A stretch of DNA of 26,835 nucleotides, taken from the IMG/VR virus record IMGVR_UViG_3300044636_000037, positions 1-26,835 of that record. One strand, 5' to 3'. The notes under the pieces are model-generated. The model saw only the letters and a list, made by a program, of their open reading frames with translations, was not told the origin of the DNA and did no database searches. Positions 1,588-24,670 of this stretch are shown here, piece after piece. This DNA is from a virus (Duplodnaviria; Caudoviricetes). The position numbers and the translations under genes are program-made. Numbering within the stretch: the stretch's first letter is position 1; the number at the start of each line of letters is the position of its first letter.

Positions 1588-2072
1588 AAGTCAGCGCCGC
1601 AGCCATCGACATGATCAAGCACCACGAAGGGGTGAGGACTAAGCCTTACCGTTGTCCGGCGCTGTTGTGGACGGTGGGCGTGGGCCATGTGATTGATCCG
1701 ACTCACGCGGCGGTGAAGTATGAGGAGCGCAAGAGTTTACCGGTACCCGCAGGCTGGGATCGCACCCTCACGATGGACGAGGTGGATCGGATTCTTTCTC
1801 AAGACCTTGGTCGGTTTGAGCGTGGTGTGGTTCGACTTTGCCCTGCTGCTGTTGGTCGTCAGGGAGTCTTCGATTCTCTCGTCAGTTTTGCCTTCAACGT
1901 GGGTCTTGGCAATCTCCAGCGTTCTTCCCTTCGGATGAAGACCAACCGGGGTGATTTTGAAGAAGCGGCAGAAGAATTCATGAAGTGGACGAAGGCGGCT
2001 GGGCGTGTATTGCCCGGTCTTGTCAAACGCCGTAAAGATGAGCAGGCTTTATATTTGTCGGGAGTTGCCTAG
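1584..2072 (+). CDS. Endolysin, GH24 phage lysozyme
   Basis: HEG...PYRCPALLWTVGVGH gives an E-x8-C-x5-T catalytic triad; 'FDSLVSFAFNVG' and 'GLVKRRKDE' motifs. GTG 1584 preferred over TTG 1578 because of the GTGA overlap. Confidence 0.93.
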   Translation: MKVSAAAIDMIKHHEGVRTKPYRCPALLWTVGVGHVIDPTHAAVKYEERKSLPVPAGWDRTLTMDEVDRILSQDLGRFERGVVRLCPAAVGRQGVFDSLVSFAFNVGLGNLQRSSLRMKTNRGDFEEAAEEFMKWTKAAGRVLPGLVKRRKDEQALYLSGVA

Positions 2073-4364
2073 ATGCCCCTACAAAAAGTTGAACTACGCC
2101 CCGGCGTCAACCGCGAGTCTACTTCGTACGCTAATGAGGGCGGGTTCTTCGCTGGCGACAAAGTTAGGTTCCGTTCGGGCTATGCCGAGAAGATCGGCGG
2201 CTGGCAGAGCATCAACATCAACGGCAGTACGTTCTTCGGCGTGTGCCGGATGCTGTGGAACTGGATCAGCAAACTCAATCAGAACCTTGTTGGCATGGGT
2301 ACGAGCCAGAAGGTCTACGTGGAGCAGGGCGGCACGTACTACGACATCACTCCGCTTGGTAACTCGCTGACGCTATCGTCAAATCCGTTTTCTACTACAT
2401 CAGGTAGTCGCCTTGTCACGGTTACGGCTTCTGGGCATCTCACGGCTATCGGCACGTACGTTAATTTCTCCGGTGCCACGGCAGTAGCCAGCCTGACTCT
2501 GAACGGCCAGTACGAGATTCAGTCCGTACCTAACGCCAACGAGTTCACGATTTATGCTTCGGTTACGGCTTCATCCACAACGACTGGCGGCGGCTCGCTG
2601 GTCATTGCCAAGTTTGATATTGATGCAGGCAACGCTGTCTACAGTTCGGGCGTAGGCTGGGGTGGCCCTCCTTGGGGATCAGGCGGGTGGGGCTCTTCCA
2701 CGGGTGCAGGCGTCGAGATGCGCCTCTGGTCGATGTTCAACTACGGCGACGATTTGATGTTTGCCGAGCGCGGTGGTGAGATTTACTTCTGGACGATAGA
2801 CACGACTTCGTGGTCTCGTGCTGTTACGTTGGAAGAAAAAGCCAACACGGCGATCAAAGGTACGACGCTTGGCGCGTTTGCCTCGGGCGTTACCACTATC
2901 GTTCTGGATGATACGACTGGGCTTGATACGGGCGCGGTGCTATCGGGTAGTGGAATCGTTAGCGGTACGTACGTCACGACTGCATGGGACTTCAGCAACT
3001 CAGTCACGATTTCGCAGGCAACGAATGCCTCGGCTACGCTTTCGGCTATCTCGTTCAGTTACTCCGGTCGGCACGTGCCGAACGAGGTCAATTACATTAT
3101 TGACTCGCCAGTTAATGACTTTGTGATTTCTTGCGGCTCGACCCCGTACGACCCGACAAGTTTTGCCACGACGTTTGATCCGCTGCTTGTACGCTGGTCA
3201 GATCAAGGCAACGCTTACGAGTGGGTGCCAGCAACGACAAACCAGTCAGGCGAGCAGGGTCTGTCGCATGGCTCGTACATTGTCACAGCCAACAACACCC
3301 GTCAGGAAATCTTGATCTGGACGGACACGGCGCTCTTCTCCATGCAGTACGTCGGGCCTCCGTTCGTGTGGTCATTTACGCTGCTGGATCAAGATATTTC
3401 TATTGCATCGCAGAACGCCGTGCTGACGGTGAACAACGTGGTCTATTGGATGGGCCGCGACAAATTCTTCATGTACTCGGGTCGCGTTGAGACGCTGCCT
3501 TGCACCCTTCGCCAGTTCGTCTATAACGACATCAACTATGACCAATTAAGTCAGGTTGCGGCAGGAGCCAACGAGGGCTACAACGAGATTTGGTGGTTCT
3601 ACCCATCGCAGAACAGCACGATCAATGACCGCTATGTCATTTATAACTATCTTGAGCGTATCTGGTACTACGGCAATTTGAACCGTACATTCTGGGCGCA
3701 GCATACGCAGCGCATCTATCCGTTCGCTACGTTCAACGTGCAGCAGGCATACCTTGCCACGAGCATCAATTCGTCGGTAACAACGATTGCCTTGACCGAC
3801 ACTTCGACCTTCCCGATGAGTGGCACTATCTCCATAAACTCGGAGAAGATTTCTTACGCTGCCAAGGACGGTAATACGCTCACCGGGTGCGTTCGTGGCA
3901 TTGAGGGTACAACGGCGGGATCGCACGAACAGTATGCCTACGTCACGTTCAACGTCGCAAACCAAATTATGTTGCACGAAGTGGGTAACGATGATGCGTC
4001 GGTGTCTCCCGCACTACCCATTGAGGCATTTATTGAGTCGTCGGACTTTGACATTCAAGATGGGCAGAGTTTTGGTTACGTCTGGCGCATGTTGCCCGAC
4101 CTCAACTTCACAGGGTCTACGGGATCAAGCCCGAGTGTGACGCTGACGGTACGGCCTCGGCAGAACTCTGGTTCTAACTATACGAACGCCGACAGCCCGA
4201 CTGTCACGCGCACAGCGACCATACCGGTTCAGCAGTACACCGGGCAGGTCTATACCCGTGTCCGTGGTCGCCAGATGGCGTTCCGTGTGGACTCCAACGA
4301 TCTTGGCGTTGCTTGGCAGATGGGCGTGATGCGTATTGACGTTCGACCGGATGGACGCCGATGA
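2073..4364 (+). CDS. Virion structural protein, probable tail nozzle/stabilisation protein with inserted beta-rich modules
   Basis: 763 aa, beta/aromatic-rich propeller-like segments ('LLVRWSDQ', 'EILIWTD', 'VYWMG', 'EIWWFYPS'), C-terminal 'RGRQMAFRV...DVRPDGRR'; lies just before the ejection-protein block. Confidence 0.7.
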   Translation: MPLQKVELRPGVNRESTSYANEGGFFAGDKVRFRSGYAEKIGGWQSININGSTFFGVCRMLWNWISKLNQNLVGMGTSQKVYVEQGGTYYDITPLGNSLTLSSNPFSTTSGSRLVTVTASGHLTAIGTYVNFSGATAVASLTLNGQYEIQSVPNANEFTIYASVTASSTTTGGGSLVIAKFDIDAGNAVYSSGVGWGGPPWGSGGWGSSTGAGVEMRLWSMFNYGDDLMFAERGGEIYFWTIDTTSWSRAVTLEEKANTAIKGTTLGAFASGVTTIVLDDTTGLDTGAVLSGSGIVSGTYVTTAWDFSNSVTISQATNASATLSAISFSYSGRHVPNEVNYIIDSPVNDFVISCGSTPYDPTSFATTFDPLLVRWSDQGNAYEWVPATTNQSGEQGLSHGSYIVTANNTRQEILIWTDTALFSMQYVGPPFVWSFTLLDQDISIASQNAVLTVNNVVYWMGRDKFFMYSGRVETLPCTLRQFVYNDINYDQLSQVAAGANEGYNEIWWFYPSQNSTINDRYVIYNYLERIWYYGNLNRTFWAQHTQRIYPFATFNVQQAYLATSINSSVTTIALTDTSTFPMSGTISINSEKISYAAKDGNTLTGCVRGIEGTTAGSHEQYAYVTFNVANQIMLHEVGNDDASVSPALPIEAFIESSDFDIQDGQSFGYVWRMLPDLNFTGSTGSSPSVTLTVRPRQNSGSNYTNADSPTVTRTATIPVQQYTGQVYTRVRGRQMAFRVDSNDLGVAWQMGVMRIDVRPDGRR

Positions 4365-4994: not shown

Positions 4995-7949
4995 ATGAAT
5001 CAAAGTCAATCCATGGCGGGTCTTGCCTCCCTCGTGCAGTCACGGGGTCGAAACGGCGATTCCATGCTCGTCCACATGACCCCCGGCGAAGTTAAGGGGC
5101 TGCAGGCTCTGGCCTTTGCTCACGGTGGACAACTAAGCATCAATCCCGATACGGGGCTTTACGAGGCTAACTTCCTCAAGAAACTGCTGCCAACCATTAT
5201 TGGCGCGGTACTGACCCCGCTGACGGGTGGCTTGATCAACCCGCTGACGGCTGGGTTCCTTGTGGGCGGTGTTGAAGCGGCACGTACGGGCGACCTTGGC
5301 AAGGGCTTGATGGCTGGCCTTGGCGCGTATGGTGGTGCGGGGCTTAGCAGTGCGTTGGCGGGTACTGGGGCTGCAGCCGCCGCTGGAGCGGGTGAAGTTG
5401 CTAAAACGGCTGGCGCAGAAGCCGCCGCTGCCGCTGCTAAAGAAGGTGCCACTCAGGCTGCCCAAGAGGCTGCTAAGCAGGCGGCTATGAAAGAAGCGGC
5501 ACAGGCACAGATTCAGAAACAGATCGCTACCAAGGGTATGTTTGGTCGCTTGCCCGAAGGCGTGGCAAGTTTCAAAAACATCGGCGCTGGTGCTGGGGAA
5601 ATCTTTAAGACCGGTGGCGCTGGCCTTGGCGGTATTGGCGGCATGGGCGCAGCCGGGTCTGCGTTCGGTACGCTTGGTATGCCTGCTAAAGCGGGTCTTA
5701 CTATGACTGCCGCTAACGCACTTAGCCCCGACATGGAAATGCCGGAAGGCGGTGGCTATCAGATTGACGACTCCTATTACGAGTCTATGGGGTACAGCCC
5801 CGAGCAAGGCCGCTTCCTTGGCGGTCAGTGGCGTAAGGGCTATCCCGGCTTTCCCCCGCCGGGCATGGCAGGGGGCGGCGTAATCCCAGCCCCGAACGGC
5901 AATTATCCGTTGGCTAGACCGTCAGAGAGTGTTGGCGGGTACGAGATGGATATTGATCCGTACACTGGCGAGGAGCGGTTTGCTGATGGCGGCAGCGTCG
6001 GTAATCAGAGTCTTGAACAGTATTATCAGAGTCTCCTTGCGCCTCCGACGCAGCAGGGTGGCGGCAACCCAGCCTTCTCAAACTATCTACAGAACTTTAA
6101 TCAGTTCGTGACTTCTCCAATTGCCGCTCCGCAGCAAGGTGGTGGCGGTGGACAACCCGGCGGCGGTCAGCCCGGTGGAGGACAACCCGGTGGTCAGCCG
6201 GGTGGTGGAGCAGGACAGCCCGGTGGTGGGAGACCCGGTGGTGGGAGACCCGGTGGCCCCCGTGGCGGTACAGCCCCCGGTGAACCCGGCGGCGTTGAGT
6301 ACGGTGATTTCTCCGATATGGGAAATACCGGCGGCATGCAATGGGACGCCAATCAAGGGCGTTTTGTTTCGACTGGGCCGCAGAACCCGTTTGCTGGTGG
6401 AATGCCCACAGGTAACCCGTTCGCAGGGTTTGGCAACATAGATTTCTCTGCGATCCAAGACTATTTTAGAAACGCTGGCGCAGGGGGCGGTGCTGGGCGC
6501 GGTGCGGGTGCGGGTGCGGGTGCGGGTGCGGGTGCGGGTGCCGGTGCTGGTGCTGGTTCCGGTGGTATGCCGGGAGGCCAGAATCAATATAGCGGTGATG
6601 AATTTACCGGCCCGACTGACAATCAATTCGGTGGAGACATGGGCGGCGACGGCGGGATGATGTACGCCGGAGGCTCAAAAGACTTCGACGAAACCACTGG
6701 AATGTACCGTGGTGATACGGGTCAAGGATTTGGTACGGCACAGCCTGACCAAAGTGGCGCTGGAACGCCTGATTTTAGTGGCATGGATTTCAGTAATTTG
6801 GATTTGTCCGGCCTACAGAATCTTAATCTCTCGGGTATGGGCGGCGCAGGTAGTTACATGCCTGATATGTCTGCGTTCGGTGGTGGGCAGCAGGCAAACC
6901 CGAATCCGTTTGCCGATAACTATTCCCCGCCTGCTGATACGGGCATGGGTGAAGTTGCTTATCGCGGGGGTTCGCCTAGTTTTGATATGACGGGTGGCGG
7001 TAGGGAATATACGCCCCCTCCTGAATTCTCTAGCGGCCCGATATCACCCATGCAACCGCAGGTTGAGCCAGAAGTGCCTACTGGTGGCGGTAGACCGTCT
7101 AATGATTTTTTTGGTGGGGCTATGGCTCCGACTTCGCAAACGTTTGAACCAGAAGTACCGACTGGCGGCGGTAGACCGTCTAATGATTTTTTTGGCGAAA
7201 TCATGGCTCCGACTTCGCAGACGTTTGACATGCAGCCTTACATGCCTCAACCCCAGCCTGCTCCGCAACCGGCTCCACAACCGGCTCCGCAACAACCTGC
7301 GCCTAATATGGGTGGATTTGGCGGCTTCGGTGGCATGGGCGGTATTGCTGGTCTTGCGGGTCTTGGAGGTATGGGTGGTATGTCACAACCCGCGCCTCAA
7401 CCGGCTCCTCAACCCGCGCCCCAACCGGCTCCTCAACCCACACCACAACCTGCCTTTGACTACGGCGCAATGATGGCTCAACAGCCTGCTCCGTCGTTTG
7501 ATATGGGTAGTTTTGGCGGTGGTATGGACTTTGGCGCTATGCAGCAGCCTGCCTTTGACTACGGCGCAATGATGGCTCAACAGCCTGCTCCGTCGTTTGA
7601 TATGGGTAGTTTTGGCGGTGGTATGGACTTTGGTGGTATGGATTTCGGTAGCATGGGCGGCTTTGCCGCAGGTGGCCCGATTCAATACGCCGCTGGCGGT
7701 AAGTTCTTGCGTGGCCCCGGCGATGGCATGTCGGATGACATCAAGGCGAACATCAATGGTGAGCAGGAAGCCCGGTTGGCTGATGGCGAGTTTGTCATCC
7801 CCGCCGATGTGGTTTCCCATATCGGTAATGGCTCAAGCGAAGCCGGTGCTGATAGGCTCTACAAGATGATGGCTAACATCCGCAAGGCGCGTACCGGAAA
7901 GACCCGGCAAGCCCCGCAAATTAACCCGAAGAAGTACCTACCCTCATGA
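4995..7949 (+). CDS. Gly/Pro/Met-rich internal virion (ejection-type) protein with a tape-measure-like C-terminal module
   Basis: 984 aa; globular-looking termini ('GRNGDSMLVHMTPGEV...INPDTGLYEA'; 'GPGDGMSDDI...RLADGEFVIPADVV'), Gly/Ala-rich hydrophobic segment, long low-complexity centre. Confidence 0.7.
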   Translation: MNQSQSMAGLASLVQSRGRNGDSMLVHMTPGEVKGLQALAFAHGGQLSINPDTGLYEANFLKKLLPTIIGAVLTPLTGGLINPLTAGFLVGGVEAARTGDLGKGLMAGLGAYGGAGLSSALAGTGAAAAAGAGEVAKTAGAEAAAAAAKEGATQAAQEAAKQAAMKEAAQAQIQKQIATKGMFGRLPEGVASFKNIGAGAGEIFKTGGAGLGGIGGMGAAGSAFGTLGMPAKAGLTMTAANALSPDMEMPEGGGYQIDDSYYESMGYSPEQGRFLGGQWRKGYPGFPPPGMAGGGVIPAPNGNYPLARPSESVGGYEMDIDPYTGEERFADGGSVGNQSLEQYYQSLLAPPTQQGGGNPAFSNYLQNFNQFVTSPIAAPQQGGGGGQPGGGQPGGGQPGGQPGGGAGQPGGGRPGGGRPGGPRGGTAPGEPGGVEYGDFSDMGNTGGMQWDANQGRFVSTGPQNPFAGGMPTGNPFAGFGNIDFSAIQDYFRNAGAGGGAGRGAGAGAGAGAGAGAGAGAGSGGMPGGQNQYSGDEFTGPTDNQFGGDMGGDGGMMYAGGSKDFDETTGMYRGDTGQGFGTAQPDQSGAGTPDFSGMDFSNLDLSGLQNLNLSGMGGAGSYMPDMSAFGGGQQANPNPFADNYSPPADTGMGEVAYRGGSPSFDMTGGGREYTPPPEFSSGPISPMQPQVEPEVPTGGGRPSNDFFGGAMAPTSQTFEPEVPTGGGRPSNDFFGEIMAPTSQTFDMQPYMPQPQPAPQPAPQPAPQQPAPNMGGFGGFGGMGGIAGLAGLGGMGGMSQPAPQPAPQPAPQPAPQPTPQPAFDYGAMMAQQPAPSFDMGSFGGGMDFGAMQQPAFDYGAMMAQQPAPSFDMGSFGGGMDFGGMDFGSMGGFAAGGPIQYAAGGKFLRGPGDGMSDDIKANINGEQEARLADGEFVIPADVVSHIGNGSSEAGADRLYKMMANIRKARTGKTRQAPQINPKKYLPS
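6501..6554 (+). repeat. In-frame hexamer microsatellite (GGTGCG)x6 plus 3 degenerate units, encoding (GA)n
   Basis: Read directly from the sequence. Confidence 0.95.
7065..7226 (+). repeat. Tandem 81 nt imperfect duplication (EPEVPTGGGRPSNDFFG..MAPTSQTF x2)
   Basis: Copies start at 7065 and 7146. Confidence 0.95.
7449..7633 (+). repeat. 86 nt exact direct repeat, 99 nt period (PAFDYGAMMAQQPAPSFDMGSFGGGMDFG x2)
   Basis: 7449-7534 is identical to 7548-7633. Confidence 0.95.
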
Positions 7950-8404
7950 AAGTAACCAAACTAGAAGTCAACGAACGAGACATTGACCGGATTTTTCTGG
8001 TCATTACTCGTGACTTCGCCAACGAGCACAGCATGGGCAAACTGAGTGCCTCAAACCATAACGCAGAGAAAGGTCTGCTCTGGGGCATCAAGAACATTGA
8101 GTGCGGTGCTTGGGTAGTAGAAGACGATGCCGGTAAAGTTCTTGGCACTATCGGCATTCACCGTACTTCTCCATGGTACTCGGACGAAGAGTATCTTGCT
8201 GACGGATGGTTCTACGTACTTCCTGAGTATCGTAAGACCGGCGTAGGTAAGATGTTGTTGGATGCGGCTACTAATTTTGCCAAGGAACAGGAACTGCCCT
8301 TAATTGTCGGCGTGTTCAATATGGATGACACCGGCAAGAAGATTGAAATCATGAATCGTATGGGGCTTAAACTTATTGGCGGCTTGTTCGCCACAGGAGT
8401 TTAA
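7946..8404 (+). CDS. GNAT-family acyl/acetyltransferase
   Basis: Motif A 'FYVLPEYRKTGVGKMLL' and GNAT-like size and pattern; ATGA overlap with the upstream gene. Confidence 0.88.
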   Translation: MKVTKLEVNERDIDRIFLVITRDFANEHSMGKLSASNHNAEKGLLWGIKNIECGAWVVEDDAGKVLGTIGIHRTSPWYSDEEYLADGWFYVLPEYRKTGVGKMLLDAATNFAKEQELPLIVGVFNMDDTGKKIEIMNRMGLKLIGGLFATGV

Positions 8405-8406
8405 CT

Positions 8407-10488
8407 ATGTGTGGCGGCGGCGGTGGTGGTAGTTCAGCACCTACTCAACAAACAGTTACTCAGGTAACGATACCTCCTGAGTTGATGCCGTATGCCAAGA
8501 AGGTTCTTGGCACGGCAGAAAATCTTACATACAACCAGCCCTACCAGACTTATGGTGGGCAGCGCATCGCAGGGCTTAACCCGCTCCAGCAACAGGCGAT
8601 GCAGCAGATTCAGCAGCAACAGACTGCTTCTCAAATTGGTCAAGCCACCGGTATGGCTGGGCTTGCTGGGCTTCAAGCCCAAAAGTTAGGGCAATACAGT
8701 CCAGCCCAATATCAAGGGTTAGACGTTAGTTACCTTGGCGCACAGGCTCCCAGTCTACAGCAGTACCAGATGGGGCCAGCAGAGCGTGTATCTGCCGACA
8801 AAGTAAAAGCCCAGAAACTACAGCAGTTTCAGATGGAAGGGCCAGAAAGCGTTGCGGCTCAAACTGATTTTGGTTCTGTCTCTGCACCCGGCCTTCGCGA
8901 CATTCAGATGGGTGGGCCGCAACAGGTTCAAGCCTCTCAAGTTGCTGGCGCTCAAATGGCTGGGCCGCAGCAGGTTCAAGCACCGTCTGATCTTGAGCGA
9001 TTGCAGATGGGGCCAGCCGAGCGTGTCGGCACTCAAGCCCTTGAGCAGTATCAGATGGGGCCAGCCCAGCAGGTTCAGGCTGAACGGTTTGGCCTTTCTT
9101 CACTTCAGCCATACATGTCTCCGTACATGCAGGACGTTGTGGAGACCCAGAAGCGTGAAGCGATGCGCGATGCAGCCCGTCAGATGCCGGGTGTGGGTGC
9201 TGCCGCTGCACGTGCGGGAGGTCGTGGCGGTAGCCGCGAGGCGCTTCTTCGGTCTGAGTCGCAGCGCAATTTGTCTAATCAGTTGCAGGGCATACAGGCT
9301 ACCGGTACGCAACAGGCGTTCCAGCAGGCTCAGCAGCAGTATGGCGTTGACCGTGCCCAAGCGTTGCAGGCCGCGCTGGCTAACCAACAAGCGGGTCTTA
9401 CCACGGGCCAGCAGAATCTGGCTGCACGACTTGGCGTCCAGCAGTTAGGCGCACAACAGGGACTGCAGGCTGCTCTTGCCAATCAGGCAGCGGGTATGCA
9501 GGTCGGTCAACAGAATCTGGCTGCAGCACAGAATCGCCAGCAGTTGATGGCTCAGCAGGGGCTGGAGGCTCAGCGGCTTAACCAAGCAGCGGGTTTGACT
9601 GCTGGTCAAACTAACCTTCAAGCACGTATGCAAGCCCAGTTGGCTAACCAACAGGCTCAGCAGCAAGCAGCGTTGGCTAATCAGCAAGCAGGACTTACTG
9701 CCGGTCAAGCCAATCTTCAGGCTGCGCTTCAGACGCAGGGGCTTGGCGCACAGCAAGGGCTGCAGGCTCAGTTGGCTAACCAACAGGCCCGTATACAGGG
9801 AGGCCAGATGGGTCTCCAAGCGTCGTTGGCTAACCAGCAGGCTCGACAGAGAGCGGCTGAGCAGAACCTTCAGGCTAGGCTCGGCGTTCAGCAATTGGGC
9901 GCACAGCAAGGGTTGCAGGCTGGACTTGCTAATCAACAGGCTAGGATGCAGGCAGCACTTGCCAACCAGCAGGCTGGTCTGACCACCGGTCAGCAGAACC
10001 TTGCCGCACAACTCGGTGTTCAGCAGTTGGGAGCGCAGCAGGGTCTACAGGCTCAGTTGGCTAACCAGCAGTCTCAACTTCAGGCGCAACAACAAGCCCT
10101 TGCTCAACGTCAGTTTGGGGCGCAGTTTGGTGAGCAGTCTCGGCAGTTTGGACAGAACCTTGGTCTCCAAGGTATCCAGCAGCAGTTGGCTGCGGCGGGC
10201 ATGCTCGGCAATCTGGGTCAGCAGCAGTTTGCTCAACAGCAAGGTATCAACCAAGCCCAGATGGCGGCAGGCCAGCAGATGCAAGGTCTGGAGCAGCAGA
10301 GGCTTCAGGCTGCGTACGAGGACTTCCTCAACCGGCAGCGTTACCCGTACCAGCAACTTGGCTTCATGTCAGACTTGATTCGCGGTACGCCGACCGCTGG
10401 CGGGGTTCAAAGTCTTTACGGCGCACAAGCCAGCCCACTTGGAGCCTTAGCAGGACTCGGTGGTCTATACATGGCTGGTAGAGGCTAA
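8407..10488 (+). CDS. Gln-rich DNA ejection/pilot-like protein with hendecad repeats
   Basis: 693 aa; AGGAG RBS; starts MCGGGGGGSS; central 'YMSPYMQDVV...GGSREAL'; long Q/A/L/G/N 11-residue repeats; hydrophobic Gly-rich C-terminus. Confidence 0.75.
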   Translation: MCGGGGGGSSAPTQQTVTQVTIPPELMPYAKKVLGTAENLTYNQPYQTYGGQRIAGLNPLQQQAMQQIQQQQTASQIGQATGMAGLAGLQAQKLGQYSPAQYQGLDVSYLGAQAPSLQQYQMGPAERVSADKVKAQKLQQFQMEGPESVAAQTDFGSVSAPGLRDIQMGGPQQVQASQVAGAQMAGPQQVQAPSDLERLQMGPAERVGTQALEQYQMGPAQQVQAERFGLSSLQPYMSPYMQDVVETQKREAMRDAARQMPGVGAAAARAGGRGGSREALLRSESQRNLSNQLQGIQATGTQQAFQQAQQQYGVDRAQALQAALANQQAGLTTGQQNLAARLGVQQLGAQQGLQAALANQAAGMQVGQQNLAAAQNRQQLMAQQGLEAQRLNQAAGLTAGQTNLQARMQAQLANQQAQQQAALANQQAGLTAGQANLQAALQTQGLGAQQGLQAQLANQQARIQGGQMGLQASLANQQARQRAAEQNLQARLGVQQLGAQQGLQAGLANQQARMQAALANQQAGLTTGQQNLAAQLGVQQLGAQQGLQAQLANQQSQLQAQQQALAQRQFGAQFGEQSRQFGQNLGLQGIQQQLAAAGMLGNLGQQQFAQQQGINQAQMAAGQQMQGLEQQRLQAAYEDFLNRQRYPYQQLGFMSDLIRGTPTAGGVQSLYGAQASPLGALAGLGGLYMAGRG
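9367..10146 (+). repeat. Protein-level 11-aa repeat array (23 hendecads + one 7-aa unit)
   Basis: Parses as QAALANQQAGL/TTGQQNLAARL/GVQQLGAQQGL etc., with a 33-aa super-repeat; DNA copies are synonymously diverged. Confidence 0.85.
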
Positions 10489-22243: not shown

Positions 22244-22645
22244 TCACTTACTGTTTTTGCGTACTGTTACACCGAACTCTCGCATCACGTTGATGCCGGG
22301 AGGTAGCCCGTCATCTTCATGACCGTTGAGAAACTCTCTGAAGTTGCTCTGATGTATACGCCGCTCAAGCAAGTGCGGAGCCTCGTTATCAAGAACAAAC
22401 TTGTAAAAGTTATCCCAGTCTTGGCAGAAGAAACGCTCGTTCAACTTCCGCATAACGGTGCCGTGACCAGTCTTGATACTGTCAGCGTTTACCGAGTTGC
22501 AGATGTCGAGTAGCGCGGCTTCGATCTGTGTGGCTTCGTCTTTGAGTGCTTTGTCAGCAGCCTCAAATTCACGTAGTAATCTTTCGCGTTGATCACGTAT
22601 GGCAATAAACGCTTCGACTAACTGTTCTGTATTCACCGTATTCAC
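22244..22645 (-). CDS. Hypothetical replication-module protein (N-terminal coiled coil, 'IKTGHGT', 'DWDNFYKFV', 'PPGIN')
   Basis: GTG start overlapping the helicase stop (TAGTG) with a GAGGAGG RBS. Confidence 0.8.
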   Translation of the reverse strand: MNTVNTEQLVEAFIAIRDQRERLLREFEAADKALKDEATQIEAALLDICNSVNADSIKTGHGTVMRKLNERFFCQDWDNFYKFVLDNEAPHLLERRIHQSNFREFLNGHEDDGLPPGINVMREFGVTVRKNSK

Positions 22646-24234
22646 TATGCCTCCTCACTGATTACGTTACTGTACAGGTCAACTATTTTTTGATGACTGT
22701 CTACCTTGCCTTGCAGCATGGCATACATCTTCTTCTCAACATCCGAGCCTTGCAGGTGAACAACAGTCATCTTGTTCTTCTGCCCGACTCGTTCAATACG
22801 TCCGATGCACTGCAGATAAGTCTCTACGCTCATCACTGGCGACCAGAACACAACGGTGTCAGCAGCAGTTAGCGTGATGCCGTGCGCTGCAGATTGCGGC
22901 TGAATCACAAGCACTCGCGGGTCGGTCAAAGATTGGAATCGTTTGATGATCTCTGCGCGTTCTTGTGCTGCAACTGAACCCTGTATGACCTCGCTCGTGA
23001 AACCTTCGCTAGTTAAGAACTTCGTGACTACATCAATAGTATGGATGTACGGAACAAATACTACAACCTTGTTTGACGTTTCATCAAGTACATCTTTCAG
23101 TTCGCGCAGTCGCGGAGAGATGTCGAACTCAATGACTTGCTGCTTGTCGGTATACACCGCACCGCCGCTGATCTGTAGAAGTTTATTCAACGATGCTGCT
23201 GCGTTTACGGCGGAGATTTGTTCCCCTGCTGCTTCAATCAGCATCTGCTGCTTTAGCGTTTTGTAATACTTTGCTACCTGCGAAGTAAGCGGCACATCGC
23301 GTGTCTGATAAGTAAGTTCTGGTAGATCAAGACACTCTTTCTTGGAGTACCTCACTGCGGGCTGTAACGCTCGGTGTACTTCTTCTTTGTGCGTCGGTCT
23401 AGGCAACCACTTAAAGCGGCTTACCTGCTGCATAACTTTATCTCGCCACGCCGTCGTGAACTTCGGCACGCGCTGGGGCGACACGAGTCTTGCAAGACCA
23501 AACGCATCAACAGGTGACTGTGAGGCGGGTGTGCCAGTCATCATCCATAGCCACGTGTCGGGCGTGAGTAGTTTGGCTAGGGTCTTCCATCGCTTCGTCG
23601 ATGCCGTTTTGTAAGCGTTTGCCTCGTCAACAATGATCAAGTCGAACTTGGCAGCGACGAGTTCATCGAACACCACGTGTGTGCCGTCGTAGTTGATGAT
23701 CGTGAAGTCGTACTCGCTCTCAATGATCTTCTTTCTTTTCTCGCTCGTGCCGTAGGCCACGGCGCACGTACGGTGCATGGCAGTCCTAAAGACATCTGCT
23801 TGCCACGCCGAATACATGATAGATAGAGGACAGACCACCAAGACTTTCTTGATGATCCCTAAGTTCATTAGATAGTCAGCGGCCCAGATAGCAGCGGATG
23901 TCTTGCCCGTACCTGCCTCGTTGAAACAGAACGCACGTTGTCTAACGGACAGGAACGAAGCCGTGTCTCGCTGATGTTCAAACGGCTTGTATACGCCGGG
24001 CCAGTTGTAGTCTCGCAATATGGGTGAAGGAAGTTTTGGAAGAGTTATGTTCGGCTGCGCCTGATCAATGATGGCGCTTGCTACAGATACTTCCTTGTGA
24101 TCCCAGAACAAAACTATTTCTTTACTGTTGCCTTGTGACTTAGTGATCTCGCACTTCTCTACATGACTGTAGATATCGTCAGCAAGGTTGTAAGGAATAC
24201 TGAACTGTAATGCTTGGTTTTCAACTATGTTCAT
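22645..24234 (-). CDS. SNF2-family (SF2) helicase/ATPase
   Basis: Q motif 'PFEHQ', Walker A 'GTGKT', 'VVCPLS', Walker B 'IVDEAN', 'MTGTP', 'HGITLTAA', motif VI 'QCIGRIERVGQ'. Confidence 0.92.
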   Translation of the reverse strand: MNIVENQALQFSIPYNLADDIYSHVEKCEITKSQGNSKEIVLFWDHKEVSVASAIIDQAQPNITLPKLPSPILRDYNWPGVYKPFEHQRDTASFLSVRQRAFCFNEAGTGKTSAAIWAADYLMNLGIIKKVLVVCPLSIMYSAWQADVFRTAMHRTCAVAYGTSEKRKKIIESEYDFTIINYDGTHVVFDELVAAKFDLIIVDEANAYKTASTKRWKTLAKLLTPDTWLWMMTGTPASQSPVDAFGLARLVSPQRVPKFTTAWRDKVMQQVSRFKWLPRPTHKEEVHRALQPAVRYSKKECLDLPELTYQTRDVPLTSQVAKYYKTLKQQMLIEAAGEQISAVNAAASLNKLLQISGGAVYTDKQQVIEFDISPRLRELKDVLDETSNKVVVFVPYIHTIDVVTKFLTSEGFTSEVIQGSVAAQERAEIIKRFQSLTDPRVLVIQPQSAAHGITLTAADTVVFWSPVMSVETYLQCIGRIERVGQKNKMTVVHLQGSDVEKKMYAMLQGKVDSHQKIVDLYSNVISEEA

Positions 24235-24249
24235 ACTGTACCTATTTGT

Positions 24250-24415
24250 AAAAGCCCGTCTCGTGGGCCAGACGGTTGACGCTTAAGGTGGAGGCTGTGC
24301 GGGGGGTGCCCAACACGCGGGTGCCTTACCGTCAACTGACGCGGTTTGCGGTATCACTCCCGCAGGGGAAGGGTGAAAGAAAACCCCATCCAACGCACTC
24401 ACGCCTTACGTTGAA
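24250..24415 (-). ncRNA. Candidate structured RNA (multi-stem, possible pseudoknot)
   Basis: Longest non-coding gap in the window, almost wholly covered by complementary segments; G-U pairs favour the minus strand. Confidence 0.55.
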
Positions 24416-24670
24416 TTACTTCATCGCTCCGCTCGACTTGCGACGGAACGAACGATTCTTAGATGGTGCCTGTAGACGAGTGCCGTCGCGGTTGGTGCCG
24501 CCTTTCGACAACGCCCTTACATGTGCCACATCTTTACCTTTTCGGTCAATGCCTTTTTTGTCGTACGACCGACGCGCACGTTGTCGCTCCATACGATCTT
24601 CATGTTCGTCACGCGCTACCTGCTTTTTGTACTCATGCTTGTAGGGGCGCGGCTTGTTTACATACGGCAT
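24416..24670 (-). CDS. Small basic HNH-like endonuclease
   Basis: 'KDVAHVRALSKGGTN...NRS' matches the D-x-x-H...GG.N...N beta-beta-alpha pattern; Arg-rich helix upstream; AGGTGAGG RBS. Confidence 0.7.
   Translation of the reverse strand: MPYVNKPRPYKHEYKKQVARDEHEDRMERQRARRSYDKKGIDRKGKDVAHVRALSKGGTNRDGTRLQAPSKNRSFRRKSSGAMK

Follow-up and report, generated by a model that had tools for sequence, protein, structure and literature searches.

The gap in front of the SNF2-family helicase gene of an uncultured phage was found to encode a real, conserved and pseudoknotted RNA, the fold of which is confirmed by covariation in homologous loci. Judged from its sequence, this RNA is a longer and distant relative (a variant) of the orphan motif Proteo-phage-1, RF03044. 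The window, i.e. the whole stretch of DNA analysed in this work, is a linear virus DNA of 26,835 bases with a completeness of about 42 %. Its minus-strand arm encodes, in order, DNA polymerase A, a 69-aa ORF, a PD-(D/E)XK exonuclease, an 84-aa ORF and, behind a gap of 181 nt, the SNF2 helicase, followed by two proteins without clear function, an HTH protein and a primase-like protein. The 84-aa ORF, which gave no Pfam match, is presumably HNH-like, as judged by a motif only. The preliminary description had singled out this gap as the largest, and among the 22 gaps between long ORFs listed the next one measured 67 nt. The elements of the RNA and the flanking genes, in the direction of transcription, are as follows.

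24416 to 24670, minus strand: 84-aa ORF, phrog_4590 (unknown function), not required by the RNA
24407 to 24415, minus strand: P1 5' strand, which begins directly behind the 84-aa ORF's stop codon; two-sided changes in 6 of 8 P1 pairs
24400 to 24406, minus strand: loop A and pseudoknot 5' strand (PK1a), with covariation; aligns with the RF03044 loop
24396 to 24399, minus strand: conserved AGUG junction, its last two bases extending P1; GUG invariant in alignment A1, motif also in the RF03044 consensus
24389 to 24397, minus strand: P1 3' strand, pairing with 24415-24407, with covariation
24347 to 24388, minus strand: optional P2 insert, two hairpins here, only a few nt in L753 and L747
24337 to 24346, minus strand: AAC, pseudoknot 3' strand (PK1b) and single linker A, with covariation; same order in RF03044
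24275 to 24336, minus strand: long stem P3 with bulged G (24282) and pyrimidine-rich inner loop (CCUCC here); basal pairs covary (7 of 7); lies beyond the Rfam model
24253 to 24274, minus strand: 3' module, consisting of a CGUCU linker and the P4 hairpin (loop ACGAGAC); exchanged or missing in relatives
24235 to 24252, minus strand: short run of U, then an AU-rich stretch with the ribosome-binding site (AGGU) of the helicase gene, as read from the sequence
22645 to 24234, minus strand: SNF2-family helicase gene (Pfam PF00176/PF00271; phrog_62), the first gene behind the RNA

The nearest homologues of the helicase in cultured phages are only about 40 % identical. Its N-terminal extension of about 70 aa (24234-24025, minus strand) is absent from many relatives, and its presence does not strictly track that of the RNA.

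The main stems drawn in the preliminary description were recovered in this copy. On the minus strand P1 pairs 24415-24407 with 24397-24389 (9 bp, two of them G-U), the pseudoknot joins 24405-24400 to 24343-24338 with a duplex energy of -6.2 kcal/mol, P3 is formed by 24336-24324 and 24288-24275, and P4, formed by 24269-24265 and 24257-24253, is followed by four U. The hairpins of P2 are also present, but they are optional and not conserved in relatives; likewise the CGUCU/AGACG pairing exists here but is kept only in a sub-class of the family. The suggested competition between CGUCU/AGACG and a terminator is not conserved, at least five U in the 7 nt behind P4 occurring in only 15 of the 161 helicase copies.

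Folding energy no better than that of shuffled sequences, together with stems that fail to covary in homologous loci, had been put forward as evidence against such an RNA. The energy of the single copy was indeed at chance level: the minus strand alone gave a z-score of -0.83, with 46 of 200 shuffles as good, and the plus strand gave -1.35. The conserved nested fold reached -55.7 kcal/mol in comparison to an MFE of -61.8 kcal/mol, with no pseudoknot bonus included. Stem covariation, by contrast, was found in the homologous loci, and the fold was accepted as real because covariation, not the energy of a single sequence, decides the matter.

To collect relatives, the 84-aa protein was used in a search that yielded 80 viral loci. 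The same RNA lay directly behind the small ORF in 34 of them, 31 being recognized by a strict parser, L005 by alignment, and L021 and L022 by model R1. In the other protein-selected loci the helicase mostly abutted the ORF, the gap was filled with a bare promoter or a small gene, or a different gene came next. Three DNA-pattern scans raised the set to 386 loci, and the 315 that could be parsed represented 182 distinct copies, of which 166 precede the helicase, 12 have other locations and 4 were not long enough to place, the helicase share being biased upward because the patterns were derived from helicase-type copies. Covariation was analysed in two alignments, A1 comprising protein-selected copies and A2 comprising 104 non-redundant copies filtered for pairing.

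The intergenic regions gathered in this way showed covariation in P1, in the 6-bp pseudoknot, in P3 and in P4. Over these four elements 89.4 % of the cells in A2 were paired, a value that is partly circular because A2 was filtered for pairing, in comparison to 70.3 % in shuffled alignments and 32-42 % when the strands were slid. Two-sided changes numbered 610 versus 204 after shuffling, and 22 of the 26 pairs displayed them. Two further results depend less on this filter. Patterns that did not force complementarity returned copies with all six pseudoknot pairs formed in 119 of 119 matches from metagenomes and in 113 of 120, 57 of 58 and 114 of 120 matches (we estimate the chance expectation at about one in four). 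In a tree built from 92 helicases, columns that pair in the pseudoknot and in P3 co-changed on the same branch at 0.73, whereas the unpaired combinations did so at 0.12 (maximum 0.55, n = 110). The commonest pair at the second pseudoknot position in A2 was G-U (69 of 104 copies). The covariation, and the G-U pairs that are functional on one strand only, support the earlier proposal of a structured, strand-specific, pseudoknotted RNA.

Scans with the core alone demonstrated that P2 and the entire 3' module are dispensable. The constant part consists of P1, G-UWA, the 6-nt pseudoknot strand, RGUG, AAC, the complement of the pseudoknot strand, one A and P3. Some of these bases were fixed by the search patterns, yet they are invariant or dominant in the protein-selected alignment A1 too. 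The bulged G located eight bases before the end of P3 was fixed by no pattern and is present in 97 % of 153 copies. Where AGUG begins with G and not with A, the partner strand tends to start with U, and this correlation may reflect a seventh, wobble pair in the pseudoknot.

Further contacts were also considered. A second pseudoknot between AGUG and C-ACU found no support: it was compatible with 94.7 % of sequences with no two-sided change, and its 3' partner is missing in many variants. For a CG/CG mini-pseudoknot in the 3' module the data are evidence neither way because the columns are nearly invariant. Positions 24272, 24264 and 24258 of the 3' module have two alternative states and switch jointly from one to the other 4-5 times along the helicase tree, which may point to a base triple or some other tertiary contact.

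A tie of the RNA to the small HNH-like ORF was rejected, most of the 80 protein-selected loci being without the RNA and the RNA occurring also without the ORF. In L110 and L201 it lies directly between the exonuclease and the helicase. Readthrough or frameshifting into the helicase was rejected as well, the distances between ORF and helicase keeping no frame on inspection.

Bacterial genomes yielded little. A pattern scan that was too loose gave both stems in 0 of 120 matches and served as a negative control, R1 matched 0 of 36 loci from a loose pattern scan of the genome collection, and the core pattern remained near chance in two samples of 401 genomes (6 versus 5 control matches, and 2 versus 6). 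L966 and L968, two copies in bacterial assemblies of the order to which G006 belongs (at about position 1500 or below), look genuine, and a clear terminator follows one of them. Coliphage N4 gave no copy with R1, with RF03044 or with a pattern that takes pairing into account, and phage LUZ7 gave none with RF03044 over its whole record or with R1 and the pattern over its first 40 kb.

The core-only scans gave 35 clusters that are not before the helicase, 12 still behind the small ORF and 23 elsewhere. The latter copies follow terminase, portal, primase-helicase, Fic or Cro genes, precede nuclease and DNA polymerase genes, or lie between SSB-like and primase genes. In L669, L752, L762, L796, L801 and L286 a terminator-like hairpin comes next, with no close same-strand gene and often with a convergent one. 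Copies from Pseudomonas are usually found shortly past a terminator and before a holin gene, sometimes beside tRNAs, and in the cultured phages phiAH14a and Solano the RNA is part of the late operon before holin/endolysin.

A sigma70-like promoter was present within about 60 nt of the RNA in 30 of 153 copies, in comparison to 0/151, 0/132, 4/148 and 1/131 in controls, and a terminator-like hairpin stood behind it in 27 of 153 copies, in comparison to 2 of 133 in the control. On sequence grounds this enrichment fits the production of a discrete RNA in some phages. The distance from P4 to the helicase start was 17-29 nt in 129 of 161 helicase copies; such tight spacing may be due to genome compaction alone. 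The constant 5'-UTR position before related genes and the expression platform typical of riboswitches were not found, since 21 of 126 copies lack an ORF in the next 130 nt, the neighbours are unrelated and the U tract is limited to the 15 helicase copies mentioned above. In L028, L037, L040, L168 and L797 a -35 hexamer is placed 17 nt before a -10-like hexamer; a transcript from this candidate promoter would lack the pseudoknot because the -10 hexamer overlaps its 5' strand.

The preliminary description did not recognize the family. In the comparison with Rfam the window indeed gave no match at gathering level and one chance match at E<=10, and the motif remained unmatched in 20 homologous loci; the core, however, corresponds to the 3' half of Proteo-phage-1. 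The only lead from Rfam was a terminase-adjacent copy, L742, with a weak RF03044 match of 29.3 bits (cut-off 42). Both RNAs share the order P1, loop A, G-started 6-nt pseudoknot strand, AGUG, P1 3' strand, AAC, complement and A. In the window the hairpin loop of P1 holds the A, the G-started 6-mer and AGUG; AAC, the complement of the loop 6-mer and CAG are found at 24346-24336, and the location is likewise phage or prophage. The window RNA differs in its pseudoknot sequence, in the 42-nt P2 insert and in preceding a helicase gene in an uncultured phage, whereas RF03044 members precede lysis genes. The RF03044 model ends where P3 begins.

Of 151 genomes sharing the genus of a Pseudomonas locus, 34 provided members of RF03044 (32 above the cut-off); of 151 that share their order with a Burkholderiales locus, 3 did so, and 120 members were obtained among about 500 viral pattern matches. 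On inspection true members run on into a P3 of the same type and similar 3' hairpins. Four of the 16 loci scanned (L850, L860, L881 and L890) act as bridges: they scored 55.9-71.7 bits on RF03044, above the cut-off of 42, and were matched by R1 over all 137 positions with rough E-values of 4e-10 to 1.4e-8. The window RNA was nevertheless filed as a variant and not as a member because RF03044 misses the window (below the 42-bit gathering cut-off and unmatched even at E<=10), because the extra 5' hairpin next to P1 in RF03044 was not seen on inspection of the upstream part of the window, where P1 starts right after the stop codon, and because R1 matches only one of 31 genome loci with Pseudomonas/Burkholderiales members, that one partially.

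Rfam types RF03044 as 'Gene; sRNA'. Proteo-phage-1 reportedly originates from a 2017 survey of 224 motifs. A full-text literature search found no match for 'Proteo-phage-1' or 'RF03044', nor for SNF2 and pseudoknot combined, and the main text of PMC5737381, the part compared here as distinct from its supplement, does not name the motif. In the part of PMC10690425 (Fremin et al. 2023) available for comparison nine unnamed candidates are placed before SNF2 genes, e.g. DNAVirus_1070, _1473, _1549 and _1587. Like the window RNA they come from IMG/VR and lie within 25 bp of SNF2-type genes, the comparison being one of position and not of alignment, and a part of the window RNA may already be listed among them.

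Four options for function had been offered initially, and a non-coding RNA or a cis-regulatory element fits the data best. A structured single-stranded DNA signal such as an origin, or a chance fold, is highly improbable in spite of the adjacent replication genes and the chance-level folding energy, given the strong compensatory changes, the G-U-rich pairing that works on one strand only, the promoters just upstream and the copies in late and packaging regions.

The explanation that we favour, tentatively and by analogy, is that the RNA acts in cis or in trans by offering an anti-Shine-Dalgarno-like loop to ribosome-binding sites and in this way dampens translation. The RNA would be transcribed from a nearby promoter or within the operon, the pseudoknot would stabilize and present the P3 loop, and the loop, like those of CyaR and RNAIII, would pair with the ribosome-binding site of the helicase gene (in cis), with other mRNAs (in trans) or with both. 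A precedent is given by the C-rich loops of these two RNAs, as far as they are described in the consulted part of PMC2837412. In CyaR of E. coli and RNAIII of S. aureus a conserved, pyrimidine-rich loop is likewise left unpaired and complements ribosome-binding sites, but there is no sequence or family relation, and the window RNA differs in being phage-encoded, pseudoknotted and mostly operon-embedded.

The P3 loop is biased beyond its own base composition, and no pattern fixed this bias: in 153 non-redundant copies CUCC was found 88 times, in comparison to 28.0±4.6 after shuffling, and CUUUC 57 times in comparison to 11.9±3.0. The motif is kept in 16 of 21 copies without an ORF within 130 nt and in 87 of 105 copies with one, and in the Pseudomonas members ACCUC/CUCC can be seen by eye at the corresponding place. 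Outside the structural core this anti-SD-like loop is the only signal in the sequence that is left unexplained.

Covariation between the loop and the copy's own ribosome-binding site was not convincing (p 0.14-0.76; a value of 0.018 was obtained at 90 % redundancy and 0.29 at stricter thresholds), and the predicted duplex between loop and ribosome-binding site in this copy is weak, at -4.3 kcal/mol. Preferential kissing between the P3 and P4 loops was not found (p 0.82), and the pairing of ACU-R with Y-AGU before the ribosome-binding site gave mixed counts. Further points against pairing with ribosome-binding sites are that the near-invariant junction bases exceed the needs of a base-pairing RNA and that the pyrimidine-rich loop could equally be a candidate protein site.

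Doubtful, though well suited to the genomic position, is action of the nascent RNA in cis on transcription, as an attenuator or a put-like antiterminator for the long series of genes downstream. The RNA stands at the head of a long operon in most cases (the block from helicase to primase, or in phiAH14a and Solano the late operon), many copies are promoter-proximal, the shape is that of two helical domains joined by one base, and in the window a terminator-like hairpin with U7 (21037-21009, minus strand) precedes the primase gene. The ends of several copies at a terminator-like hairpin with no close same-strand gene behind, the rarity of a U tract behind P4 (15/161) and the Q-like gene already present in L826, one scanned Pseudomonas locus, all argue against such a role, which also leaves the loop bias unexplained. 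HK022 put suppresses pausing and termination through the beta' zinc-binding domain. As it appears in the consulted part of PMC9378689, put is a V-shaped two-stem RNA with a triplex, a G35-A9 pair and a conserved AGACG/UCUGC duplex. The window RNA resembles it in being a phage RNA of two helical domains, often promoter-proximal and heading long operons, but its sequence and fold are unlike put: on inspection it forms an H-type pseudoknot, its conserved bases are different and some of its copies end at terminators, and of the put features described there the 5' duplex/triplex, the AGACG/UCUGC duplex and the G35-A9 pair were not found in it.

In a broader reading, equally doubtful, the pseudoknot and P3 core would constitute a new biochemical class of phage RNA, either a self-cleaving ribozyme or a direct modifier of RNA polymerase or the ribosome, present in hundreds of phages and missed by an Rfam model of half its length.

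The 5', intercistronic and 3' positions of the copies would alike suit a protein-binding or stabilizing module, in which the pseudoknot blocks ribonucleases or binds a host or phage protein (as a decoy or an autoregulatory operator), with the loop as the protein site. The bulged G and the junction bases could be protein contacts, and the consulted part of PMC10690425 describes regulation of T4 gene 32 via an upstream pseudoknot. This role is rather unlikely, as no one neighbour is common to the contexts, which comprise helicase, terminase, portal, primase-helicase, Fic, Cro and holin genes.

Less probable still is a new class of small self-cleaving ribozyme that processes phage polycistronic transcripts. 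The compact pseudoknotted core of about 35 nt with P3 tolerates inserts in peripheral loops, and the RNA need not be present at a given site (it was seen right behind the small ORF in 34 of the 80 protein-selected loci), and its phage contexts are many and unrelated. According to the consulted part of PMC6765202, self-cleaving ribozymes of bacteria are found close to phage genes, with a proposed function in the processing of polycistronic RNA. Against a ribozyme stand the variability of loop A before the pseudoknot among Pseudomonas members and the second pseudoknot considered above, which shows no compensatory change. For other motifs, the main text of PMC5737381 takes downstream terminators as an argument against self-cleavage. 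The HDV-like, twister, twister-sister, pistol, hatchet and hammerhead models matched neither the window nor 40 homologous loci.

With the data presented here an orphan Rfam motif of 82 nt grows into a larger RNA in which a minimal core is defined, a second domain is conserved and deletion variants occur naturally, and the family, previously one of proteobacterial prophages, now also includes hundreds of uncultured phage contigs. Its function is directly testable, with minimal copies of about 80-100 nt and with true members carried by the cultured phages phiAH14a and Solano. A self-cleaving or antiterminating activity would make it a new functional RNA class, and pairing with ribosome-binding sites would make it a widespread regulator of phage translation.

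Several minor observations were made in the window and the related loci. The structural arm at 4995-10488 (plus strand) encodes two long low-complexity proteins with internal repeats, one Gly/Pro/Gln-rich and one Gln/Ala-rich, the second of which gave no PHROG match. The GC-rich hairpin with U7 at 21037-21009 (minus strand), between the HTH gene and the primase-like gene, resembles an intrinsic terminator within the replication operon and is absent from the list of the consensus scan. A small hairpin with the same 15-nt core occurs behind P4 in L267, L314 and L370 and in the tRNA region of coliphage N4 (L971, about 32845-32860), and similar small hairpins are found behind the RNA in many other helicase leaders. 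In N4 a non-coding stretch behind the tRNA genes (L971, about 33320-33335) contains a 10-base match to the 3' end of 16S rRNA. Finally, the RNA copy in L654 adjoins a gene for an intein-bearing terminase large subunit (1669-3036, minus strand).
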